Assembly: GCF_039541115.1 (NCBI RefSeq)
Contig: NZ_BAABFP010000002.1
Location: 744,001 to 808,000, forward strand
Origin: Angustibacter luteus
GTDB lineage: Bacteria; Actinomycetota; Actinomycetes; Actinomycetales; Angustibacteraceae
DNA length: 64,000 bases
Reading direction: 5' to 3'
How positions within the stretch are numbered: position 1 is the first letter of the stretch; every line of letters starts with the position of its first letter. The position numbers and the translations under genes were made by a program. Below the pieces are notes generated by a model, which saw only the letters and a program-made list of their open reading frames with translations, made no database searches and was not told the DNA's origin. Below are positions 3,595-64,000 of this stretch, piece after piece.

Positions 3595-4471
3595 CACCTC
3601 CGCCCGGCTCGAGGTCCGCAAGACCTACAAGCTGTACGTCGGCGGGAAGTTCCCGCGCAGCGAGTCCGGCCGCTCCTACGAGGTCACCGACTCCCGGGGC
3701 CGCTTCCTCGCGAACGCCGCCCAGGGGTCCCGCAAGGACGCCCGGGACGCCGTCGTCGCCGCCCGTGGCGCGGTGAAGGGCTGGTCCGGCGCGACCGCCT
3801 TCAACCGGGGCCAGGTGCTCTACCGGGTCGCCGAGCTGCTGGAGGGCCGTCGCGCCCAGTTCGTCGACGAGGTGTCCCGCGGCGAGGGGCTGACCCGTCC
3901 GCGGGCGGAGAAGGCCGTGGACGCCGCGATCGACCGCTGGGTCTGGTACGCCGGCTGGTCCGACAAGATCGCCCAGGTGCTCGGCGGCCTCAACCCGGTC
4001 GCCGGACCGTACTTCGACATCAGTGCACCGGAGCCGACCGGGGTGGTGGCAGTCCTTGCCCCGCAACGGTCCTCGCTGCTCGGGCTGGTCTCGGTCATCG
4101 CGCCGGCGATCGTCAGCGGCAACACCGTCGTCGTCCTGGCCAGCGAGCACCGCCCCCTGCCCGCGGTGACGTTGAGCGAGGTGCTCGCGACGTCCGACGT
4201 GCCCGGCGGTGTGGTCAACGTGCTGACCGGCCGGACCGCCGAGGTGGCGCCGTGGCTGGCCTCGCACATGGACGTCAACGCCATCGACCTGGCCGGGGCC
4301 GTCGACGCCGACGGTGTCGCGTGGGCCGATCTCGAGGTCGCCGCCGCGGACAACCTCAAGCGGGTCCTGCGGCCGGCCGACGCCGAGCCCGACTGGCGCA
4401 CGACCCCTGGCCTGGAACGGATCAAGGCGTTCGTGGAGACCAAGACCGTATGGCACCCCAAGGGGACCTGA
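3584..4471 (+). CDS. Short aldehyde dehydrogenase family protein lacking the catalytic domain
   Basis: ALDH-like NAD-binding part (PTGVV, GNTVVV, PGGVVNVLTG) and C-terminal ETKTVWHP; no ELGG or GxxC motif. Confidence 0.8.
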   Translation: MPTDTSARLEVRKTYKLYVGGKFPRSESGRSYEVTDSRGRFLANAAQGSRKDARDAVVAARGAVKGWSGATAFNRGQVLYRVAELLEGRRAQFVDEVSRGEGLTRPRAEKAVDAAIDRWVWYAGWSDKIAQVLGGLNPVAGPYFDISAPEPTGVVAVLAPQRSSLLGLVSVIAPAIVSGNTVVVLASEHRPLPAVTLSEVLATSDVPGGVVNVLTGRTAEVAPWLASHMDVNAIDLAGAVDADGVAWADLEVAAADNLKRVLRPADAEPDWRTTPGLERIKAFVETKTVWHPKGT

Positions 4472-5223
4472 ACGCGCCGGACTTCGTCGTCGAGCTCAGC
4501 CGGCGCGAGTCCGCGGCCACCTGGGACGTGACGGGCGGGATCGCCGTCGCGAACCCCACCTACGCGCACTCCCACGAGCAGAACCGCCTGCTGCTGACCG
4601 AGCCGACGCCGTGGGCGGTCGCCCTCGCGGACGCCGAGCGCGTCCAGGCGGAGGCCGGTTTGGCCCACCGTCGGGTCGACTGGCTGAACGGCGCGCCGCC
4701 CGACGTCCCGGACGTGCTGCCCGACGGGTGGTCCCTGTCGCGCACCGTCTTCATGGAGCTGACGCGCGACCTCGTCGGCGAGCCGGGCGCGGCGGAGCTG
4801 CTGACCTTCGACGACGTCCGGACGGCCCTGTGGGCCGACTGGCGCTCGCACCTGCCGGACGTGCCGGACGAGGTGATCGAGCACCTGGCCGGTCGCCGGC
4901 GCGCGACGGAGCGGGCCTGCGCCGTGACCTGGCACGCGGTGGTGCTGGACGGCGAGGTCGTGTCGTTCTGCGACCTGCGGGTGATGGCGGTCGGCGACGA
5001 GCTGATGGCGCAGATCGAGGACGTCGTCACCCTGCCTGCCCATCGCGGTCACGGCTACGCGCGGATGATCGTGGTGCACGCGGTGCGCGCGGCCCAGGCC
5101 GCCGGGGCAGACCGGATCTGGCTCGAGGCGGACGCCGACGACTGGCCGCGGGAGTTCTACTCCCGCATGGGATTCACCGAGTGCGGCCCGACCCCGGTCG
5201 TCGCGATGAGGCAGCTGCCGTGA
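4450..5223 (+). CDS. GNAT family N-acetyltransferase (paralog 1)
   Basis: IEDVVTLPAHRGHGYAR acetyl-CoA loop, LEADADDWPREFYSRMGF; start uncertain (ATG 4450 or CTG 4468). Confidence 0.75.
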   Translation: MAPQGDLNAPDFVVELSRRESAATWDVTGGIAVANPTYAHSHEQNRLLLTEPTPWAVALADAERVQAEAGLAHRRVDWLNGAPPDVPDVLPDGWSLSRTVFMELTRDLVGEPGAAELLTFDDVRTALWADWRSHLPDVPDEVIEHLAGRRRATERACAVTWHAVVLDGEVVSFCDLRVMAVGDELMAQIEDVVTLPAHRGHGYARMIVVHAVRAAQAAGADRIWLEADADDWPREFYSRMGFTECGPTPVVAMRQLP

Positions 5224-6852: not shown

Positions 6853-7539
6853 TCACTCGCGGCCCTGCCAGGTGGTCAGGCACGCGCGGTTGCCCTGCGG
6901 GTCGGCGAGCACCCAGAACGCCGGCGCGGCGGTGTCGTCGACCAGCTGGCCGCCGGCCGCGATCGCAGCGGCGATGCGGTCCTCGACCACCTCGGGCGGG
7001 ATGCGCAGGTCGAGGTGCCAGCGCTGCCGCGGAACGTCGTGCGCGTCGGTGGGCTGGAACCAGATCGTTGCCCGACGCCCCGTGGCGTCGCGGAGCTGGA
7101 TCTCCCCCCAGGCCTCGACCGTGTCGTAGTCGAGCAGGGCCGCCCAGAACGGCCTGATCTGCGCCTCGTCGGCCGAGTCGAGGCCGAGTTCGAGCACGCT
7201 GGTGCGTTCCGGGTGCGGCGTGGCCCCAGCGGCCAGCGCCAGCTCGCTGATGGTCTGGGCCAGCGCCACGTCGCGTGAGGTCACCCCGCCGACGTCGTGA
7301 CTGGTCAGCCGGACATCGAGCCGTCCGTAGGCCAGGTCGACGTCGGGGTGGTGGCCCATCTCCTCGGCGGCCAGCGAGATGGCGTCGACGAGCTTCACCG
7401 CAGTGACGAAGTCCCCGGTGTCGAAGCTGGCGTACAGCCGGTCGATCAGCATCCGCCAGTCGGGCAGCTGCGCATCGTCGACGTCCAGCTCCGTCAGCAC
7501 GCGCTTCGGCTCGGGCGGCGTCTCGGTCCTGTCGCTCAC
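6853..7539 (-). CDS. Pterin-4a-carbinolamine dehydratase fused to a VOC/glyoxalase-like domain
   Basis: AEEMGHHPDV..LTSHDVGGVT (PCD), then FWAALLDY..RWHLDL..VLADPQGNRACL (VOC); GTG 7539 follows a GA-rich RBS. Confidence 0.8.
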   Translation of the reverse strand: MSDRTETPPEPKRVLTELDVDDAQLPDWRMLIDRLYASFDTGDFVTAVKLVDAISLAAEEMGHHPDVDLAYGRLDVRLTSHDVGGVTSRDVALAQTISELALAAGATPHPERTSVLELGLDSADEAQIRPFWAALLDYDTVEAWGEIQLRDATGRRATIWFQPTDAHDVPRQRWHLDLRIPPEVVEDRIAAAIAAGGQLVDDTAAPAFWVLADPQGNRACLTTWQGRE

Positions 7540-7714
7540 TCGCGTCCCCTTCTCCCCGATCGGCACGTCGCCGGGATCGTCGACTGCCAGTCCTCGTAGC
7601 CGCTGACCTTGCCAGTCAGGGCGCCCACCGCCACACGTGGGTCTCCGTGCGTCGGGTCAGTGGGCATTCACGTTCCGGATGCGCTGACCCGGACCCACTC
7701 TGCGACAACGGTTC

Positions 7715-7736
7715 TGTCGGTGGTGGCCGATACCGT
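7715..7736 (+). promoter_or_regulatory. RecA-NDp/PafBC-type promoter motif TGTCGG-N10-TACCGT, leaderless spacing to ATG 7744
   Basis: Exact TGTCGG-N10-TANNNT pattern, 7 nt before an ATG. Confidence 0.65.
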
Positions 7737-7743
7737 CCTCTTC

Positions 7744-9083
7744 ATGACCTCAGCGACGAGCGGCCCACCGGATGCGCCGTCCGGCGTGTTCGCGGGCGCG
7801 CTGCGCGAGCTCGATGCGGGGGGAGCCGCCCGGTCTGGCACCTGTCCGATGGGGAGGTCGCAGCGGCCGTGACCGACCTTGACCGGCTGATCCGGCTCGC
7901 CGAGGCGCAGCAGTTGCGGCTCCTCGCCGAGGCCAGCACACGCGGCCTGCCCGGCCAGCAGGGGCACGCGCGCCTTGAGCAGTGGGTGCGAGCGCAGGTA
8001 CCCACGACATCCCGACGGCTCGCGGCGACCCTGGCCCGTCGAAGTGAACGACTGTTCACCGCTGCGGTGGCGGCCGAGCTGGCGCCGGCGCGGGAGGCGA
8101 TGCTGGCCGGACGGGTCAGTGTCGAGCAGGCGGACGTCGTCGCGCGCACCGTGCACTCGCTCGTCCCGCCGGCCGTCCCAGCCGAGGTCGTGCCCGCGCA
8201 TGTGGTCGTCGAGGCGCAGGCGTGGCTCCTGGACCAGGCCGTCGCGTTCGACCCGACCGAGTTGCGTCGCCTTGCCGACCGCCTCGTCGACCGGCTCGAC
8301 CCCGAGGCCGACGACCGGCTGGCCGCCAGCGAACGCGCGCAGCGGCAGGTGCGTTCGCTGACGCTGGCGACCACCACGGGTGGCATGGTGCACGTCGAAG
8401 GGCTGCTCACCCCGAACTGCGGCGCCGCCCTGCGCACGGCCATCGACGCCTGGTCCGCGCCCCAGCCAGCCGCCAACGGAACTCCGGACCCACGGACGGC
8501 CGCACAACGGCGCCACGACGGGCTCCAGCGGCTGGCCGAGAAGGCCGTCGCCGCACCCGACTTCCTGCCCAGCACCCACGGCAGCCCTTATCGGGTGGTC
8601 GTCACGATGAGCCAGCGCGACCTGGCCGAAGGGCTGGCCCCCACCCTGCCCGACGGTACCCGGCTCAGCCGTGCCGTCACCGGCACACTGCTCTGCGAGG
8701 CCGACGTCGTGCCGGTCCTGGTCGACGGCGTGGGCACCCCGCTGGACGTCGGGCGGACCCAGCGCGCCTTCACGGCACGGCAACGACAGGCGTTGGCGGT
8801 TCGGGACCGGCAGTGCACCTGGCCTGGTTGCGCCGCCCCACCCGAGTGGACGGACGCGCACCACCTCCGACCCTGGCAGCACGACGGGCCGACCGATCTC
8901 GACAACGCAGCGTTGCTGTGCAACCACCATCACCACCACGTGCACCGAGTCGGCATCGACGGCCGGGTCATCGACGGCGCGGTCAGCTGGGACACCGGCC
9001 CACCGGACAGGTCGACAGCACCGAGCATCACCCGCGCGCTGCACCTGGTCCACGACCTCGCGCGACGATGGCGCCTGCCCTGA
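7744..9083 (+). CDS. DUF222/HNH endonuclease (13E12-repeat-like), apparently frameshifted near the G6 run at 7818-7823
   Basis: RTAAQRRHDGL, PLDVGRTQR, RDRQCTWPGC..DAHHL..GPTDLDNAALLCNHHH; ATG 7744 is out of frame with the body; next in-frame GTG is 7869. Confidence 0.75.
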
Positions 9084-60017: not shown

Positions 60018-61091
60018 ATGCGCATCTCGAAGAAGACGACGATCGTCGCCTGGATGACCGCGGCTGCTGCGGTGACAGCCGTCGGCGTGGGGGGCACGCA
60101 GGCATCGGCGGCGTCCGGCAACGGCAAGGCCAAGCTCGCTCCGACGCACAGCAAGGCCCTCGCGGCCTCGAGCTCGCCGGACTACAAGGCGGCGCGGGCC
60201 GCGAAGGCCCCGGTCGCCACCAAGGCGTCGAAGGCGGCCCTGGCCACCGTGCAGGATCGCATCGCGAAGTACGTCGCGAAGAACGGCACCAGGTACACGT
60301 TCGGTTCGTACTCCGACCCGAAGACCGGCGCGCTCGTGCTCGACACCAACGCCCCGGCCAGCCTGGTGAAGTCGCTGACCAACCTGAAGACCGCCACCGC
60401 CGCCAAGAGCGTCGCCGGCCTGACCAGCGTCAAGGTCACGACCCACAAGGTCACGACGAACGACGCCTACCACCGCCGCGACGACGTCCCGGCCTTCTAC
60501 GGCGGCGGCGGACTGTCGGCCGAGGGCTTCCTGTGCTCGACCGGCTACACCGTGCAGAGCTCGACCGGAGCCCGGTGGATGGTCACCGCAGGTCACTGCT
60601 TCTCCAACGGCGCGAGCGTCAAGACCGAGTCCGGCGCGAACGTCGAGGGCACCGTGACGGCGCGCACGCTGGCCTCGCTCGGCGGCGGCCCCATCGACGT
60701 CGAGTTCCTCGCCGGCAAGTCGTACGCCGGCCGGATCTTCACCGGTGGCGTGACCAGCAGCACCAGCATCCCCGTGGTGGGTTCGGGCGCCGCGTACGTC
60801 GGCTACACGGACTACTGCCACAGCGGTCGGACCACCGGTGAGCAGTGCGGTCACACCGCGACCAGCGTCACCGCCCAGGTCTGCACCGCGACCGGCTGCA
60901 AGTCCCCGGTGATCGCCTACACCGGTGGCACCGTCCAGCAGGGCGGCGACTCCGGCGGCACGTTCTACGCCAAGAACTCCACCGGCGCGTGGATCCGCGG
61001 GCACGTCATCGCGGGCAACTCGGTCACCGGCTACATCGAGCCGTACACCGAGATCACCAAGCGCTGGGCCGTCACCGCCTCGCTGGGCTGA
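60018..61091 (+). CDS. Secreted S1 (alpha-lytic/streptogrisin-like) serine protease with pro-region
   Basis: RBS AAGGAGG; signal peptide; CSTGY, VTAGHC, CHSGRTTG, GDSGG. Confidence 0.88.
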   Translation: MRISKKTTIVAWMTAAAAVTAVGVGGTQASAASGNGKAKLAPTHSKALAASSSPDYKAARAAKAPVATKASKAALATVQDRIAKYVAKNGTRYTFGSYSDPKTGALVLDTNAPASLVKSLTNLKTATAAKSVAGLTSVKVTTHKVTTNDAYHRRDDVPAFYGGGGLSAEGFLCSTGYTVQSSTGARWMVTAGHCFSNGASVKTESGANVEGTVTARTLASLGGGPIDVEFLAGKSYAGRIFTGGVTSSTSIPVVGSGAAYVGYTDYCHSGRTTGEQCGHTATSVTAQVCTATGCKSPVIAYTGGTVQQGGDSGGTFYAKNSTGAWIRGHVIAGNSVTGYIEPYTEITKRWAVTASLG

Positions 61092-61130
61092 TCAACAGAT
61101 GGGCTGATCACCAGATGGGCTGATCACCAG
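61084..61130. repeat. 16-bp direct repeat TGGGCTGATCA(A/C)CAGA, three copies, starting over the protease stop
   Basis: Direct reading; third copy is 15 nt. Confidence 0.75.
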
Positions 61131-61146
61131 CACCACACGCTCGACC

Positions 61147-61336: not shown

Positions 61337-61539
61337 CAGGGATCGCCGCTATATGTACACAACCACTACGAACGCGGCTGCCTGACCAGCATTTATCACG
61401 CTGTGTCACCAAACCTCGCGAACGCCGATAGATCGGCACACCAGTCACATCAGCACCACCGGAGCGCCTCGCCCGCTCGGTCTGACTCCGGCCAAACCTT
61501 GGCCCGACACGGCAGTTCTCGATCGCAATCGTCCGTGCA

Positions 61540-61561
61540 TGTCGGAGCTCGGGTCTACGTT
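61540..61561 (+). promoter_or_regulatory. RecA-NDp/PafBC-type promoter motif TGTCGG-N10-TACGTT, leaderless spacing to ATG 61568
   Basis: Exact pattern, 6 nt before the ATG; no Shine-Dalgarno. Confidence 0.65.
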
Positions 61562-61567
61562 GTTCGC

Positions 61568-62359
61568 ATGAGCGCCGGTCAGCTACTGGGTCGCGCGACG
61601 TCGAATACGTCTCGCGTTCTGGCAGGTATCCGCGACGCACTGGGACAGCAGGCGCCAGACCGCCTGGCATTGATGCTCTACGGCAGCGTCGCTCGCGGAA
61701 CGCAGGGCGACGACTCTGACATCGACGTCCTCGAATTGGTCTCCGGCGATGCAGCGACGTATCAGGTCGGAACCATCAACGTGACGCAGTACCGCCCTGC
61801 CCACCTCAGGGCTCTTGCCGCGCAGGGCAGCTTGTTCGTGTTGCATCTACGCACGGATGGCGTTGTCATCGAGGATCGGTTCGGACTGCTCACTCGGACA
61901 CTGGAAGCTTATGAGCGGCCGCTCACATACGCCCCAATATGGGACCAACTGGCGACCGCAGCAGGCGTGCTCGACGTCTCCGCTCACGATGTCCGCGGAT
62001 ACCTCCGCGGACTTGGCCGTCTCGGTGTCTATATCGCGCGCACCGCCGCATACCTTCGCAGCGTCGAGGCGGGCGAGGTCAACTTCGACATCGGCTTGCT
62101 CAGCCAACAACTCGACCAGCCTGGGCTCGCCGACGCAGTTGCTCTTCGCCGTCAGGCGACGTTCTCGCTCTCCGATATCGCAAAGCTGCGTCATGAGATC
62201 GAGCGCATCGTGCCAAACGTGCCAAGCGGCCCTATCGAATCCGTTGAGTCGTACGCCATCGCACATGCAGACCATGGGGAACTGGCAATGCTCATGGCCA
62301 CGGTGTTGACCGATGAAGACGAGCTGGAGTACAGCGCACTCACCCTCCCCCCGTTCTGA
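61568..62359 (+). CDS. Pol-beta superfamily nucleotidyltransferase (possibly HalB-like), 263 aa
   Basis: LYGSVARG..DSDIDVL (GS plus DxD); GSLFVLHLRTDG; helical C-terminal half ending EDELEYSALTLPPF. Confidence 0.8.
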   Translation: MSAGQLLGRATSNTSRVLAGIRDALGQQAPDRLALMLYGSVARGTQGDDSDIDVLELVSGDAATYQVGTINVTQYRPAHLRALAAQGSLFVLHLRTDGVVIEDRFGLLTRTLEAYERPLTYAPIWDQLATAAGVLDVSAHDVRGYLRGLGRLGVYIARTAAYLRSVEAGEVNFDIGLLSQQLDQPGLADAVALRRQATFSLSDIAKLRHEIERIVPNVPSGPIESVESYAIAHADHGELAMLMATVLTDEDELEYSALTLPPF

Positions 62360-63036
62360 TGCGTGAACGGATCGCGGTCGTCGGTGACGTCCACGGCAAC
62401 GCTCGGGCGTTGGCGCGAGCCTTCGAGTGGCTTGAGACTTGGGACGGATTGGTGATCTTCGTCGGGGATTACGTAAACCGTGGCCCGGCATCGCGCGAAG
62501 TCGTCGATCACTTGATCCTCGCCAAGGACGCACTCGGCGAGCGCTTGGTGCTCCTGCGTGGCAATCACGACCAAGTGCTGCTGGACTTCATTTCGGGCGA
62601 GAGCCCACGCCGACTGCTTTCGCATGGCGGCCTGACCACCGTCAGCAGCTACCTGAAGGGTACGGAGGCTCAGGCGAGCATTGAGACTTTTCGCGAAACC
62701 TTTCCCGACGGGCATCTACGTCTCCTAGGCGACACAGGGACGCACTTCGAGACCGACGAGATGCTGGTGTCGCATGCCGGCTATAACCCTGACAGACCAA
62801 CAAGTAGGAGGTCAGAAGACTTGGCCTTGGGACGGCATCATGGGATCTTTTCCCGAGGCGCTACTGCACCAAAGGCGCTCATCATCTGCGGCCACTACAT
62901 CCAGAGGGGGATGAAGCCGTTCGAGTCGAGGAACCTGATATGCCTTGACACCGGAAGCGGCACGACCGCGGGGGCTCCGCTGACGTTGGTCACGCTGCCA
63001 GATCGCAACTTCTACCAATTCTACGGAGAGACATGA
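62359..63036 (+). CDS. Calcineurin-like metallophosphoesterase (PPP/ApaH-like)
   Basis: GDVHG, GDYVNRG, LRGNHD, SHAG, CGHY, LDTG; TGATG coupling. Confidence 0.9.
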   Translation: MRERIAVVGDVHGNARALARAFEWLETWDGLVIFVGDYVNRGPASREVVDHLILAKDALGERLVLLRGNHDQVLLDFISGESPRRLLSHGGLTTVSSYLKGTEAQASIETFRETFPDGHLRLLGDTGTHFETDEMLVSHAGYNPDRPTSRRSEDLALGRHHGIFSRGATAPKALIICGHYIQRGMKPFESRNLICLDTGSGTTAGAPLTLVTLPDRNFYQFYGET

Positions 63037-64000
63037 CGGATCTGAAGGAGGCATGTCGGGACCTTTTCGCGGCGCTCGATGAGGGCAAGCGCGTAATCTG
63101 CATCCACTATAGTTGCGAAAACTTCCACGATGTCACCGACCGCCCTGTTGCGGTGAGCGCCATCGCTGTTTCCGAACTGACCGATGCAACAGGGGGACGA
63201 GAGTCAACCGTCTTCTCCATCGCCAATTCTTCAGCAAACCAAGACCCGGTCGAACGCGAAAAGGAGATGTTTGCCAGATTCTTCGAGTATGCACGCACAC
63301 GCCCCGATGCGTTCTGGGTTCACTGGAATATGAACAACGCCACCTACGGCTTTTCTGCACTGATCTCTCGATACCGTTACCTGTTGGGCTCTGAACCCAA
63401 CAGTCCGTGGCAGAGCAACCGTCTCTTCGATCTTGACTCACTAGTGGGCGCCAGGTACGGCGATCAGTTTGCCAAGCACCCAAAACTCCTGAGTCTTTGC
63501 TCGTTGAATGGGTATTTCCTCTCGTTCTTCAAGGCGGGCCGTGACGAAGCAAAGGCGTTTTCGGACGGCGACTACGGCTTGTGCGAGAGGTCCACTGCGG
63601 AGAAATCACACCTTCTAGCATCTATTTTGACTGACTTCCGTGCGGGATCGCTGCGTACACAAAACTCAGTCGGTTCACTGCACTTTGCATCCGAGCCCCT
63701 AGACGCTGTGAAGGTCGTGCTGGCCATAGGTGATCGCTTTCGATATGTGGAACGGCAACTGCTCCGTCGCCACGCCTCTCGCGACACGCTTAAGATTCAA
63801 GACGAGTACGATGCACAGGATTTGCTCAGGGCGCTCCTTGCCGTGTTCTTCGAGGATATTCGCCCTGAAGAGGTCGCACCAAAGCTTGGCGGCGCCTCCT
63901 CACGCATCGACTTCATTCTTCCCGACTACGCGCTCGCACTAGAGCTGAAGTACGCGCGTAGCAGCATGACTTCAGCTTCACTCGGCGAGGAACTCATCGT
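63033..64000 (+). CDS. Degenerate DnaQ-like exonuclease-fold domain fused to a DpnII/MboI-like PD-(D/E)xK nuclease; partial, more than 322 aa
   Basis: Translated by hand, no stop to the window end; ATGA overlap; ICIHYSCE..EKEMFARFF..WVHWNM..YGFSAL..RY..LFDL; IQDEYDAQDLLRALL..FEDIRPEE..SSRIDFIL..ALELK. Confidence 0.8.
   Translation, partial: MTDLKEACRDLFAALDEGKRVICIHYSCENFHDVTDRPVAVSAIAVSELTDATGGRESTVFSIANSSANQDPVEREKEMFARFFEYARTRPDAFWVHWNMNNATYGFSALISRYRYLLGSEPNSPWQSNRLFDLDSLVGARYGDQFAKHPKLLSLCSLNGYFLSFFKAGRDEAKAFSDGDYGLCERSTAEKSHLLASILTDFRAGSLRTQNSVGSLHFASEPLDAVKVVLAIGDRFRYVERQLLRRHASRDTLKIQDEYDAQDLLRALLAVFFEDIRPEEVAPKLGGASSRIDFILPDYALALELKYARSSMTSASLGEELI

Follow-up and report, generated by a model that had tools for sequence, protein, structure and literature searches.

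A gene cassette of Angustibacter luteus encoding a HalB-like nucleotidyltransferase, a phosphoesterase and an exonuclease-fold nuclease looks like an undescribed relative of Hailong

What kind of system is encoded by the three overlapping genes that lie at the end of a 64,000-nucleotide (nt) stretch of the Angustibacter luteus genome? The stretch, hereafter the window, is contig C2:744001-808000 (NZ_BAABFP010000002.1) of a high-GC genome of 4.16 Mb in 11 contigs. An earlier reading made from the letters alone (the sequence-only reading) had singled out its last open reading frames (ORFs), here called ORF1, ORF2 and ORF3, as a candidate anti-phage operon of a nucleotidyltransferase (NTase), a metallophosphoesterase and a nuclease fusion. 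Based on the evidence set out below, the cassette looks like an undescribed defence variant related to the Hailong system, with a HalB-like NTase, an ApaH/PPP-type phosphoesterase and, as its predicted effector, a nuclease joined to an exonuclease-like (exo-like) domain.

The ORF list contains the three genes as frames on the same strand, ORF1 at 61568-62359, ORF2 at 62359-63036 and ORF3 from 63033, and consecutive frames overlap: the ORF1/ORF2 junction is TGATG at 62357-62361 (a 1-nt overlap), and the ORF2/ORF3 junction is ATGA at 63033-63036 (a 4-nt overlap), and GGAGAG lies 3 nt ahead of the start of ORF3. The GC content is 0.70-0.80 in the flanks and lower in ORF1 (0.63), ORF2 (0.61) and ORF3 (0.54-0.56). 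The description of three coupled low-GC genes was thereby borne out by the ORF list, the junction sequences and the GC profile, as was the statement that ORF3 has no stop inside the window. In a 20-kb segment around the window end (L002, contig C2:803001-823000), which was used for sequence past position 64000, that stop is found at window-equivalent position 64163 and is followed by two more genes of the same low-GC island, so that the suggestion of further genes past 64000 was also correct. The trio opens this island, which is ~5 kb long and lies at the 3' end of xth.

In ORF1, Pfam identified only a generic NTase core (PF01909, expectation value (E) 4.2e-06). The NCBIfam model of HalB, the NTase of Hailong (NF051895, anti_phage_HalB), aligned with ORF1 from position 1 to 197 of its 211 profile positions (E 1.6e-31, 109.6 bits). 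At E 1e-8 the same model gave a match in just one of 401 genomes of the phylum, the window's own, and in no genome of a 14-member control set. The only strong sequence matches of ORF1 in the PDB were the HalB entries 9dbh, 9dbi and 9dbj (E 1.6e-12 with the single sequence), which rose to E 4e-22 with a profile of the 31-member ORF1 family. Consistent with this, when the AlphaFold2 (AF2) model of ORF1 (predicted local distance difference test score (pLDDT) 88.9) was searched with Foldseek, HalB chains ranked at the top with template modelling (TM) scores of 0.81-0.83 and E 3.5e-12, and the next family, kanamycin nucleotidyltransferase, followed at TM 0.48; no sensing domain was evident beyond the HalB fold in the model or in these matches. 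The predicted catalytic residues are G39-S40, D51-x-D53 and D103. D51 and D53 are invariant in all 31 family members and align with the sites of the HalB mutations D21A/D23A named in PDB titles, and the HalB site R164A, likewise from a PDB title, aligns with the LRR of ORF1 at 193/194, of which R194 is nearly invariant. Sequence and model together thus indicate that ORF1 is a homologue of HalB, the oligo-deoxyadenylate (oligo-dA) synthase of Hailong. The pol-beta NTase of the sequence-only reading stands as an NTase, and its generic label can be sharpened to HalB homologue on the agreement of NCBIfam, the PDB and Foldseek. The invariant tyrosines of the ORF1 family are Y75, which aligns with a HalB leucine, and Y255, which is in a conserved C-terminal tail where the model confidence falls to about 50; in addition, Y121 is nearly invariant and aligned with a HalB tyrosine. 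On these alignments, Y121 and Y255 are the candidate priming tyrosines of ORF1.

The C-terminal half of ORF3 was readily identified. Residues 230-371 form a DpnII/MboI nuclease domain (PF18742, E 8.5e-42, 142.7 bits against a cut-off of 27) in which D293, E304 and K306, the latter two being the ends of the ELK motif, are invariant in 40 of 40 homologues, and the PD-(D/E)xK catalytic site is, judged by its residues, intact. This half also matches a PADLOC model of a nuclease associated with prokaryotic Argonautes (pAgo), 'Aga_Helical-REase' (PDLC02411, E 1.2e-17), and residues 252-331 match EcbAgaN in the PDB (23wq, E 6.8e-05). NCBIfam has no family for ORF3 as a whole, and its N-terminal half was matched by no Pfam, NCBIfam or PADLOC model, the Pfam exonuclease models included. 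Two tyrosines of ORF3, Y26 and Y328, are invariant.

The N-terminal half was assigned by structure. In the AF2 model of ORF3 (pLDDT 89.6), residues ~17-207 have a beta-beta-beta-alpha-beta-alpha-beta core, which VIA-align superposed on the exonuclease domain of a family-B polymerase with Z 15.6 (2.8 Å over 169 residues) and, with Z 12-13, on ExoI, the exonuclease domain of DinG, epsilon and 3'hExo. Foldseek returned RNase T at 3.4e-05, and in the ESM Atlas unnamed clusters were nearest to the domain, the PolB-exo and YprB RNase_H_2 families being more distant. The model therefore assigns the N-terminal domain of ORF3 to the DnaQ/PolB-exo fold. The residues expected of such an exonuclease could not be recognized in the family. 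Across a broad exo-like family of 40 members, the invariant or nearly invariant positions are H25, Y26, C28, E76, H97, W98, M100, G106, F107, R113, G143, N159, G169, E172, S187 and K191, a list that contains no Asp. When the exonuclease motifs were mapped by strand and helix positions of the model, the Asp position of motif ExoI would be the small residue 27 (Ser, Ala or Gly), with E29 mostly kept, that of ExoII would be the variable T104 (Thr or Ser), and the ExoIII pair would correspond to S187-x3-K191. An hhalign alignment of this domain with the genome's own DEDDh oligoribonuclease Orn was not significant (probability 0.15%); its register coincides with the model-based mapping, a coincidence that carries no evidential weight. 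Residue conservation and model together make it likely that the exonuclease pocket of ORF3 is catalytically dead. Of the pseudo-exonuclease/restriction-nuclease fusion that had been proposed, the exonuclease fold with no recognizable DEDD set and the intact DpnII/MboI domain were both recovered, and the dead pocket has the standing of a likely feature only.

The exo-like domain is a swappable sensor module. A phmmer search with ORF3 residues 1-220 against 1.84 billion representatives gave 625 matches at E <= 0.001 and 347 at E <= 1e-10, and among 24 scanned relatives the domain was fused to TIR in five, to HEPN in one and to DpnII/MboI in one; PADLOC recognized only the effector halves of such relatives, as SpbK-like TIR and PDC-M34B. 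The commonest form was a short one: 105 of the 145 listed relatives are 235-300 amino acids (aa) long, and 84 of these 105 end in a strongly hydrophobic 19-residue window, as called by a Kyte-Doolittle screen and not by a dedicated transmembrane predictor. This membrane-tailed form is phrog_8766 (annotated as of unknown function), which matches ORF3 residues 2-210 with E 5.6e-26; it turned up on plasmids from seven genera as well as in 18 records of Streptococcus prophages. Its proteins (~265 aa, for instance those of Bacillus thuringiensis pAW63 and of Streptococcus Javan prophages) share with ORF3 the N-terminal domain and the residues H25, Y26, E76, H97-W98, R113, N159, S187 and K191, but carry a membrane tail in place of the nuclease. 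Two positions of family members were observed in passing. In prophage Javan10 (locus L091), the membrane-tailed form (4013-4801) is part of the lysogeny module, with the excisionase side to one flank of it and the Cro/CI-integrase side to the other; the lysogeny module of a prophage is a typical place for exclusion and defence genes. In metagenome locus L015 (3-2764), an ORF3-type gene lies between the type I genes hsdM (E 8.3e-76) and hsdS, which is a classic slot for embedded defence genes.

ORF2 is a metallophosphoesterase by its match to PF00149 (E 1.3e-14, 55.5 bits against a cut-off of 21.5). The nearest NCBIfam models, all below their cut-offs, are symmetrical diadenosine tetraphosphate hydrolase (ApaH), the PrpA/B protein phosphatases, the phosphatase domain of Pnkp and PrpE, and the PDB sequence matches begin with a putative diadenosine tetraphosphatase and continue with PP2A and PP1. 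The metal motifs GDxHG, GD, GNH, H and GH are invariant in all 11 members compared, G68-N69-H70 among them, and the R of the second motif (GDxxxRG) varies. From its sequence, ORF2 appears to be an active ApaH/PPP-type phosphoesterase with intact metal motifs. It also resembles a PHROG annotated as 'RNA ligase'. The three motifs on which the sequence-only reading had relied, DxD, GNHD and ELK, are accordingly real and conserved, in 31/31 ORF1 relatives for DxD, in 11/11 ORF2 relatives for GNH and in 40/40 ORF3 relatives for the E and K of the last.

Do the three genes belong together outside A. luteus? Proteins matching ORF3 numbered 251 at E <= 0.001, and all 120 that were listed carry PF18742; the full two-domain architecture recurs in many Actinobacteria and in metagenomes. 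Its occurrence is nonetheless sporadic. Only two of the 401 phylum genomes have ORF3 relatives, the window's own and one with the restriction endonuclease (REase) domain alone; a genome-contig search with the single ORF3 protein gave three loci, all with the REase domain only; and in IMG/VR viral contigs the trio was not found with the patterns used, one alignment giving 29 loci, all with the REase domain only, and another giving none. To assess gene order we relied on a metagenome scan with the ORF3 family alignment, from which 80 loci were kept, and on tblastn of the five island proteins against these and four others (84 loci in total). Sixteen of the 84 have a near-full-length ORF3 relative, and in all 11 metagenome loci with at least 1.4 kb of upstream sequence, relatives of ORF1 and ORF2 lie directly upstream of ORF3 with the order kept, which bears out the neighbourhood conservation that had been proposed as a check. 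Genes 1 and 2 overlap in all 11 of these trio loci, by 4 nt in eight (start codons being assigned by the first-start-codon rule). In locus L024, which has 948 nt upstream, ORF2 is present and ORF1 is cut off; loci L018 and L021 were uninformative for this count. Supporting the association, the ORF1 and ORF3 relatives of Humibacter sp. BT305 are DVJ78_17340 and DVJ78_17350, and for each of 21 ORF1 relatives the longest contig is as long as that of an ORF3 relative; both are independent hints of co-occurrence. No relatives of the two later island genes, of 404 and 208 aa, were found in the 84 loci, from which it follows that the conserved unit is the trio. Among the genes flanking the trio are those for a GmrSD-like protein together with an integrase in L023, for an integrase in L022, for HipA in L019 and for a helix-turn-helix protein in L010, and the cassette fits the description of a conserved mobile unit in a defence-compatible setting. 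Three further observations were made at these loci. In L026 an NTase is followed directly by a frame-broken ORF3 with no ORF2, a decayed form. L013 contains at 150-1415 a 421-aa frame in which ~120 N-terminal residues of an ORF1-type NTase are joined to ORF3-type residues 122-376, which is probably a deletion remnant of the trio. In L016 a CAP/SCP-domain gene (7486-8274) lies downstream of the trio, and tblastn with the window's xth and CAP proteins found no similarity there.

The first two genes also occur as a pair. When ORF1 was compared by tblastn with 72,556 plasmids, three records were found, all from Rhodococcus. In each of them a metallophosphoesterase gene (207-210 aa) follows the gene of the HalB-like NTase with a 4-nt overlap, and no ORF3-type gene is present in any of the three contexts. 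The two of these NTases that were scanned match NF051895 (E 6.7e-24 and 4.9e-25; 84.7 and 88.4 bits), and the partner phosphoesterase is related to ORF2 over its full length (31% identity, E 1e-28; 100% probability in hhalign). The NTase and the phosphoesterase are thus a unit in its own right. On pLRE138 of R. erythropolis (locus L126, 2742-7012) and pdjl-6-4 of R. qingshengii (locus L128, 2756-6831), the pair forms part of a recurrent plasmid module: upstream of it is a 202-aa gene in divergent orientation, and downstream a gene for a TPR protein in convergent orientation, the pdjl-6-4 neighbours being taken from the annotation table only. The 202-aa protein of pLRE138 resembles Orn, with the five DEDDh residues all present, and the TPR protein of this plasmid carries DUF4062; this module may be another undescribed system built on the pair. 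A pentapeptide-repeat protein is encoded 2 kb upstream on pLRE138. The third pair lies at the end of a linear plasmid of Rhodococcus pseudokoreensis (locus L127, 1-5340), directly downstream of a large NACHT-domain protein. Because the phosphoesterase trails the NTase even where the receiver differs, and because an active-looking 3'-5' exonuclease stands beside the pair on one plasmid, it is more likely that ORF2 processes the NTase product than that it serves one particular receiver.

These associations could also be read without immunity. The trio might be a mobile module for processing or repairing nucleic-acid ends, comprising a tailing enzyme, an end-healing phosphoesterase and a nuclease that act for the island or in DNA metabolism; the likeness of ORF2 to the Pnkp phosphatase domain and the 'RNA ligase' PHROG would suit such a role, as would the location of the island in a repair gene, xth, and the Orn-like exonuclease with all DEDDh residues that adjoins the Rhodococcus pair. 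We give this explanation a very slim chance. The genes are sporadic and island-borne (ORF3 relatives in 2 and HalB-like matches in 1 of the 401 phylum genomes), the sensor is swapped among TIR, HEPN, membrane and REase killing modules and is found in prophage lysogeny-module and type I restriction-modification embedded positions, and the link to xth did not recur in tblastn against the 84 other loci.

A second alternative is suggested by the similarity of ORF1 to MntA, the NTase of the MntA-HepT toxin-antitoxin system. Here the NTase would act on protein, nucleotidylating ORF3 or itself and holding the nuclease off, and the phosphoesterase would arm it by removing the mark. ORF1 does match the MntA model NF047752 (E 1.4e-05) and MNT entries in the PDB, PPP-family enzymes act on phospho-proteins, ORF3 offers the invariant Y26 and Y328 as acceptors, and HalB itself becomes covalently tied to its product through a tyrosine, according to a review (PMC13434031). 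The match to the MntA model, however, is confined to the NTase core and scores only 24.9 bits (cut-off 60), whereas the HalB match extends over the full length; the NTase and phosphoesterase occur as a pair where there is no ORF3 to modify; and a nucleic-acid-binding exonuclease fold would have no role. We consider this explanation very unlikely.

The explanation that we prefer builds on Hailong. This system consists of HalA, an ion channel (a pentapeptide-repeat/K+-channel effector), and the NTase HalB (Tan et al. 2025, as described in PMC13434031, PMC13276650 and PMC13586616). According to a review of its mechanism (PMC13434031), HalB constitutively makes tyrosine-primed poly-dA, which is 'probably transformed' by cellular enzymes into short oligo-dA; the oligo-dA keeps HalA closed, and a phage exonuclease that degrades it springs the trap. 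From its homology to HalB, ORF1 would be expected to make linear oligo-DNA and, by analogy, the control would be inhibitory and not activating. We put at about even the chance that the trio works as a Hailong-type system: the product of the NTase would act through the exo-like domain to gate a soluble nuclease, and would itself be processed by the phosphoesterase. Such a system would be a three-gene anti-phage cassette of the abortive-infection type that shares its principle with Hailong but not its effector. Just as HalB produces tyrosine-primed oligo-dA, ORF1 would produce a linear oligodeoxynucleotide, and ORF2 would process it by release from the priming residue, by trimming (of the 5' end) or by a turnover that yields a short-lived signal. 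The DnaQ-fold domain of ORF3, proposed as the reader because this fold is a natural binder of a single-stranded 3' end, would bind the 3' end of the oligonucleotide, and the bound oligonucleotide would keep the nuclease off. Its loss in infection, whether to phage exonucleases or through halted synthesis, would then free the PD-(D/E)xK domain to cut DNA. The chemistry of the product, the action of ORF2 and the binding by ORF3 are all inferred by analogy. Least secure is the sign of the control, since most members of the sensor family work with no NTase and so must respond to something else; we lean modestly towards inhibitory over activating control.

With the opposite sign, the cassette would be closer to cyclic-oligonucleotide-based anti-phage signalling systems (CBASS) or type III CRISPR: the NTase would be silent until infection, its oligonucleotide would switch the nuclease on, and the phosphoesterase would clear stray signal, so that the cell does not kill itself, and reset the system. 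This matches the writer/eraser/reader layout of the sequence-only reading. A dedicated degrading enzyme is well suited to setting a threshold, the families nearest to ORF2 hydrolyse dinucleoside polyphosphates and nucleic-acid ends, and the stand-alone membrane, TIR and HEPN forms of the sensor are easier to explain if the ligand activates. On the other hand, HalB, the closest characterized relative of ORF1, is constitutive, and its product inhibits the effector (PMC13434031); the CD-NTase model of PADLOC, 'Cyclase', gave ORF1 only E 0.058 (10.7 bits); and ORF1 has no evident domain beyond the HalB fold with which to sense infection. We regard an activating signal as rather unlikely.

Several results weigh against the inhibitory Hailong-type system that we prefer. 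The 109.6 bits of ORF1 are below the HalB equivalog cut-off of 190 (NCBIfam NF051895), and its sequence places it in a clade related to HalB and not among HalB equivalogs. Neither ORF2 nor ORF3 is HalA, and the best match to the HalA model (NF051894) in the window's own genome reaches 26.8 bits against a cut-off of 250 and lies ~490 kb away; weak matches of the same kind occur in 5 of 14 control genomes. With no HalA and an ORF1 below the cut-off, the cassette falls outside Hailong in the strict sense, and ORF1 may make another product. In two metagenome loci, L014 and L015, neither an NTase nor a phosphoesterase is encoded within the 938 and 985 nt upstream of the ORF3 relative. The membrane-tailed relatives are single genes: in all five contexts inspected (pAW63, a Calothrix plasmid, prophage Javan10, a Cereibacter plasmid, where the gene is beside an integrase, and a Legionella plasmid) there is no neighbouring NTase or phosphoesterase. 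Since most members of the sensor family are thus without an NTase, the domain must sense something besides the product of a dedicated NTase. In addition, a guard that is only inhibited has no obvious need for a phosphoesterase, and defence genes are neighbours in a minority of the trio flanks, most neighbours having no family.

Comparison with described systems supports treating the cassette as distinct. It matches no named system in PADLOC v2, and in a literature search that did not include the primary Hailong paper or the 2015 nucleotide-centric survey of conflict systems we found no description of the trio or of the sensor domain; together with the lack of an NCBIfam family for ORF3, this agrees with the initial impression that the trio was not a named system. 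A 2026 paper (PMC13586616) states that DefenseFinder and PADLOC do not yet recognize Hailong itself. With Hailong the cassette shares a full-length homologue of HalB, in sequence and structure, that keeps the catalytic Asp and the R164 equivalent, and, as predicted from its genes, the plan of a small mobile operon that couples an NTase to a cell-killing effector. It differs in that the effector is a soluble exonuclease-fold and PD-(D/E)xK nuclease with no HalA, in that a third gene, the ApaH/PPP phosphoesterase, is obligatorily coupled to the NTase, and in that ORF1 scores below the equivalog cut-off. The AgaN nucleases of short pAgo systems ('Aga_Helical-REase') have the same C-terminal DpnII/MboI-type PD-(D/E)xK domain but another regulatory half, and there is no Argonaute partner here. 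With the type VII toxin-antitoxin system MntA-HepT the cassette would share, by analogy, the regulation of a nuclease toxin by a minimal pol-beta NTase, whereas the similarity is confined to the NTase core, ORF2 and ORF3 contain no HEPN domain, and a phosphoesterase is added. Again by analogy, it would share with CBASS that uses nuclease effectors an NTase-made signal, a sensor fused to a DNase and swappable effectors, but ORF1 is no CD-NTase (cGAS/DncV-like nucleotidyltransferase), the sensor of ORF3 is an exonuclease fold and not of the SAVED, STING or Cap4 type, and the signal would probably be linear DNA.

As reviewed, Hailong has two genes and HalA, a channel, as its only described effector, with short DNA serving as a tripwire on a killer protein. 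If the proposal made here is true, a HalB-type NTase can also be wired to a soluble DNase, a dedicated phosphoesterase belongs to the signal-making module, and the role of receiver has been taken on by a proofreading-exonuclease fold that is catalytically degenerate; an ORF2-type enzyme could then be what turns the protein-linked polymers of HalB-type enzymes into free oligonucleotides. Prophages and plasmids commonly carry the receiver domain, together with TIR, HEPN and membrane effectors. Once it has a name, hundreds of genes now labelled 'hypothetical' could be annotated, and the way in which infected cells detect DNA ends or oligonucleotides would become accessible to testing. We also advance, tentatively and as a somewhat doubtful proposition, a broader view that combines three parts: that the phrog_8766 domain is a new and widespread sensor family for oligonucleotides or 3' ends of single-stranded DNA that gates at least four killing modules (membrane tail, TIR, HEPN and PD-(D/E)xK); that the HalB-like NTase and the ApaH/PPP phosphoesterase are a portable maker and processor of a DNA signal for several receivers (the ORF3 nuclease, the Orn-like exonuclease with DUF4062-TPR, and NACHT); and that both belong to an immune network based on linear oligo-DNA of which Hailong was the first branch to be described. 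If this were true, the breadth of that network would be comparable to cyclic-nucleotide signalling.

The features of the locus are listed in Table 1. The last ~150 nt of the intact xth at the far end of the island are a lower-GC, diverged copy of the remnant at its left edge, and on this sequence evidence the insertion of ~5 kb appears to have displaced the native 3' end of xth and supplied a replacement, leaving xth intact. The sequence-only reading had described an insertion that truncates xth; the displacement of the native 3' end stands, and the functional truncation does not, as a full-length xth of 268 aa is present at the far side.

Table 1. Features of the island and its edges; positions are those of the window or, past its end, of segment L002 and their window equivalents.
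Feature	Position	Strand	Evidence or remark
xth 3' remnant, 53 codons	61190-61348	-	Translation ends ...AERWSDHAAVVVDYDV and stop; aligns with 3' end of intact xth; left edge of insertion
Island left end and operon upstream untranslated region	61349-61567	+	GC drop; xth homology ceases ~61345
ORF1, HalB-like nucleotidyltransferase, 263 aa from ATG	61568-62359	+	NCBIfam, PDB, AF2/Foldseek
ORF2, ApaH/PPP-type metallophosphoesterase, 225 aa	62359-63036	+	PF00149
ORF3, predicted exonuclease fold and DpnII/MboI nuclease, 376 aa	63033-64163 (window-equivalent; L002 4033-5163)	+	PF18742, AF2 model
Schlafen/AlbA_2 protein, 404 aa	L002 5251-6465 (window-equivalent 64251-65465)		Low-GC; PF04326 E 2.5e-06; GGAGGA ribosome-binding site ahead
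208-aa protein, no family	L002 6597-7223 (window-equivalent 65597-66223)		Low-GC island gene
Intact xth, 268 aa	L002 7264-8070	-	Exo_endo_phos E 9.6e-27; far end of island, beyond window
CAP-protein gene	L002 8092-8565		Just beyond xth

A start of ORF1 at GTG-61220 was considered and rejected, as it overlaps the xth remnant and as a 75%-identical homologue of 261 aa fully covers the 263-aa form. PADLOC gave no match for either of the two later island genes, of 404 and 208 aa, and no integrase was seen among the island genes. A search for direct and inverted repeats detected no repeats resembling attachment (att) sites around the island apart from the diverged xth duplication, and a scan of the island for promoters (sigma-70 consensus) and terminators gave nothing that exceeded shuffled sequences, so that the promoter of the operon was not found. 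In tblastn with the xth and CAP proteins, the 84 other loci gave no match, which means that xth is no recurrent insertion site among them. Near the left edge of the island, directly 3' of the stop of the upstream gene and just ahead of the xth remnant, positions 61084-61131 hold three tandem 16-nt copies of a repeat (TGGGCTGATCAACAGA; the other two copies are 94% and 88% identical).

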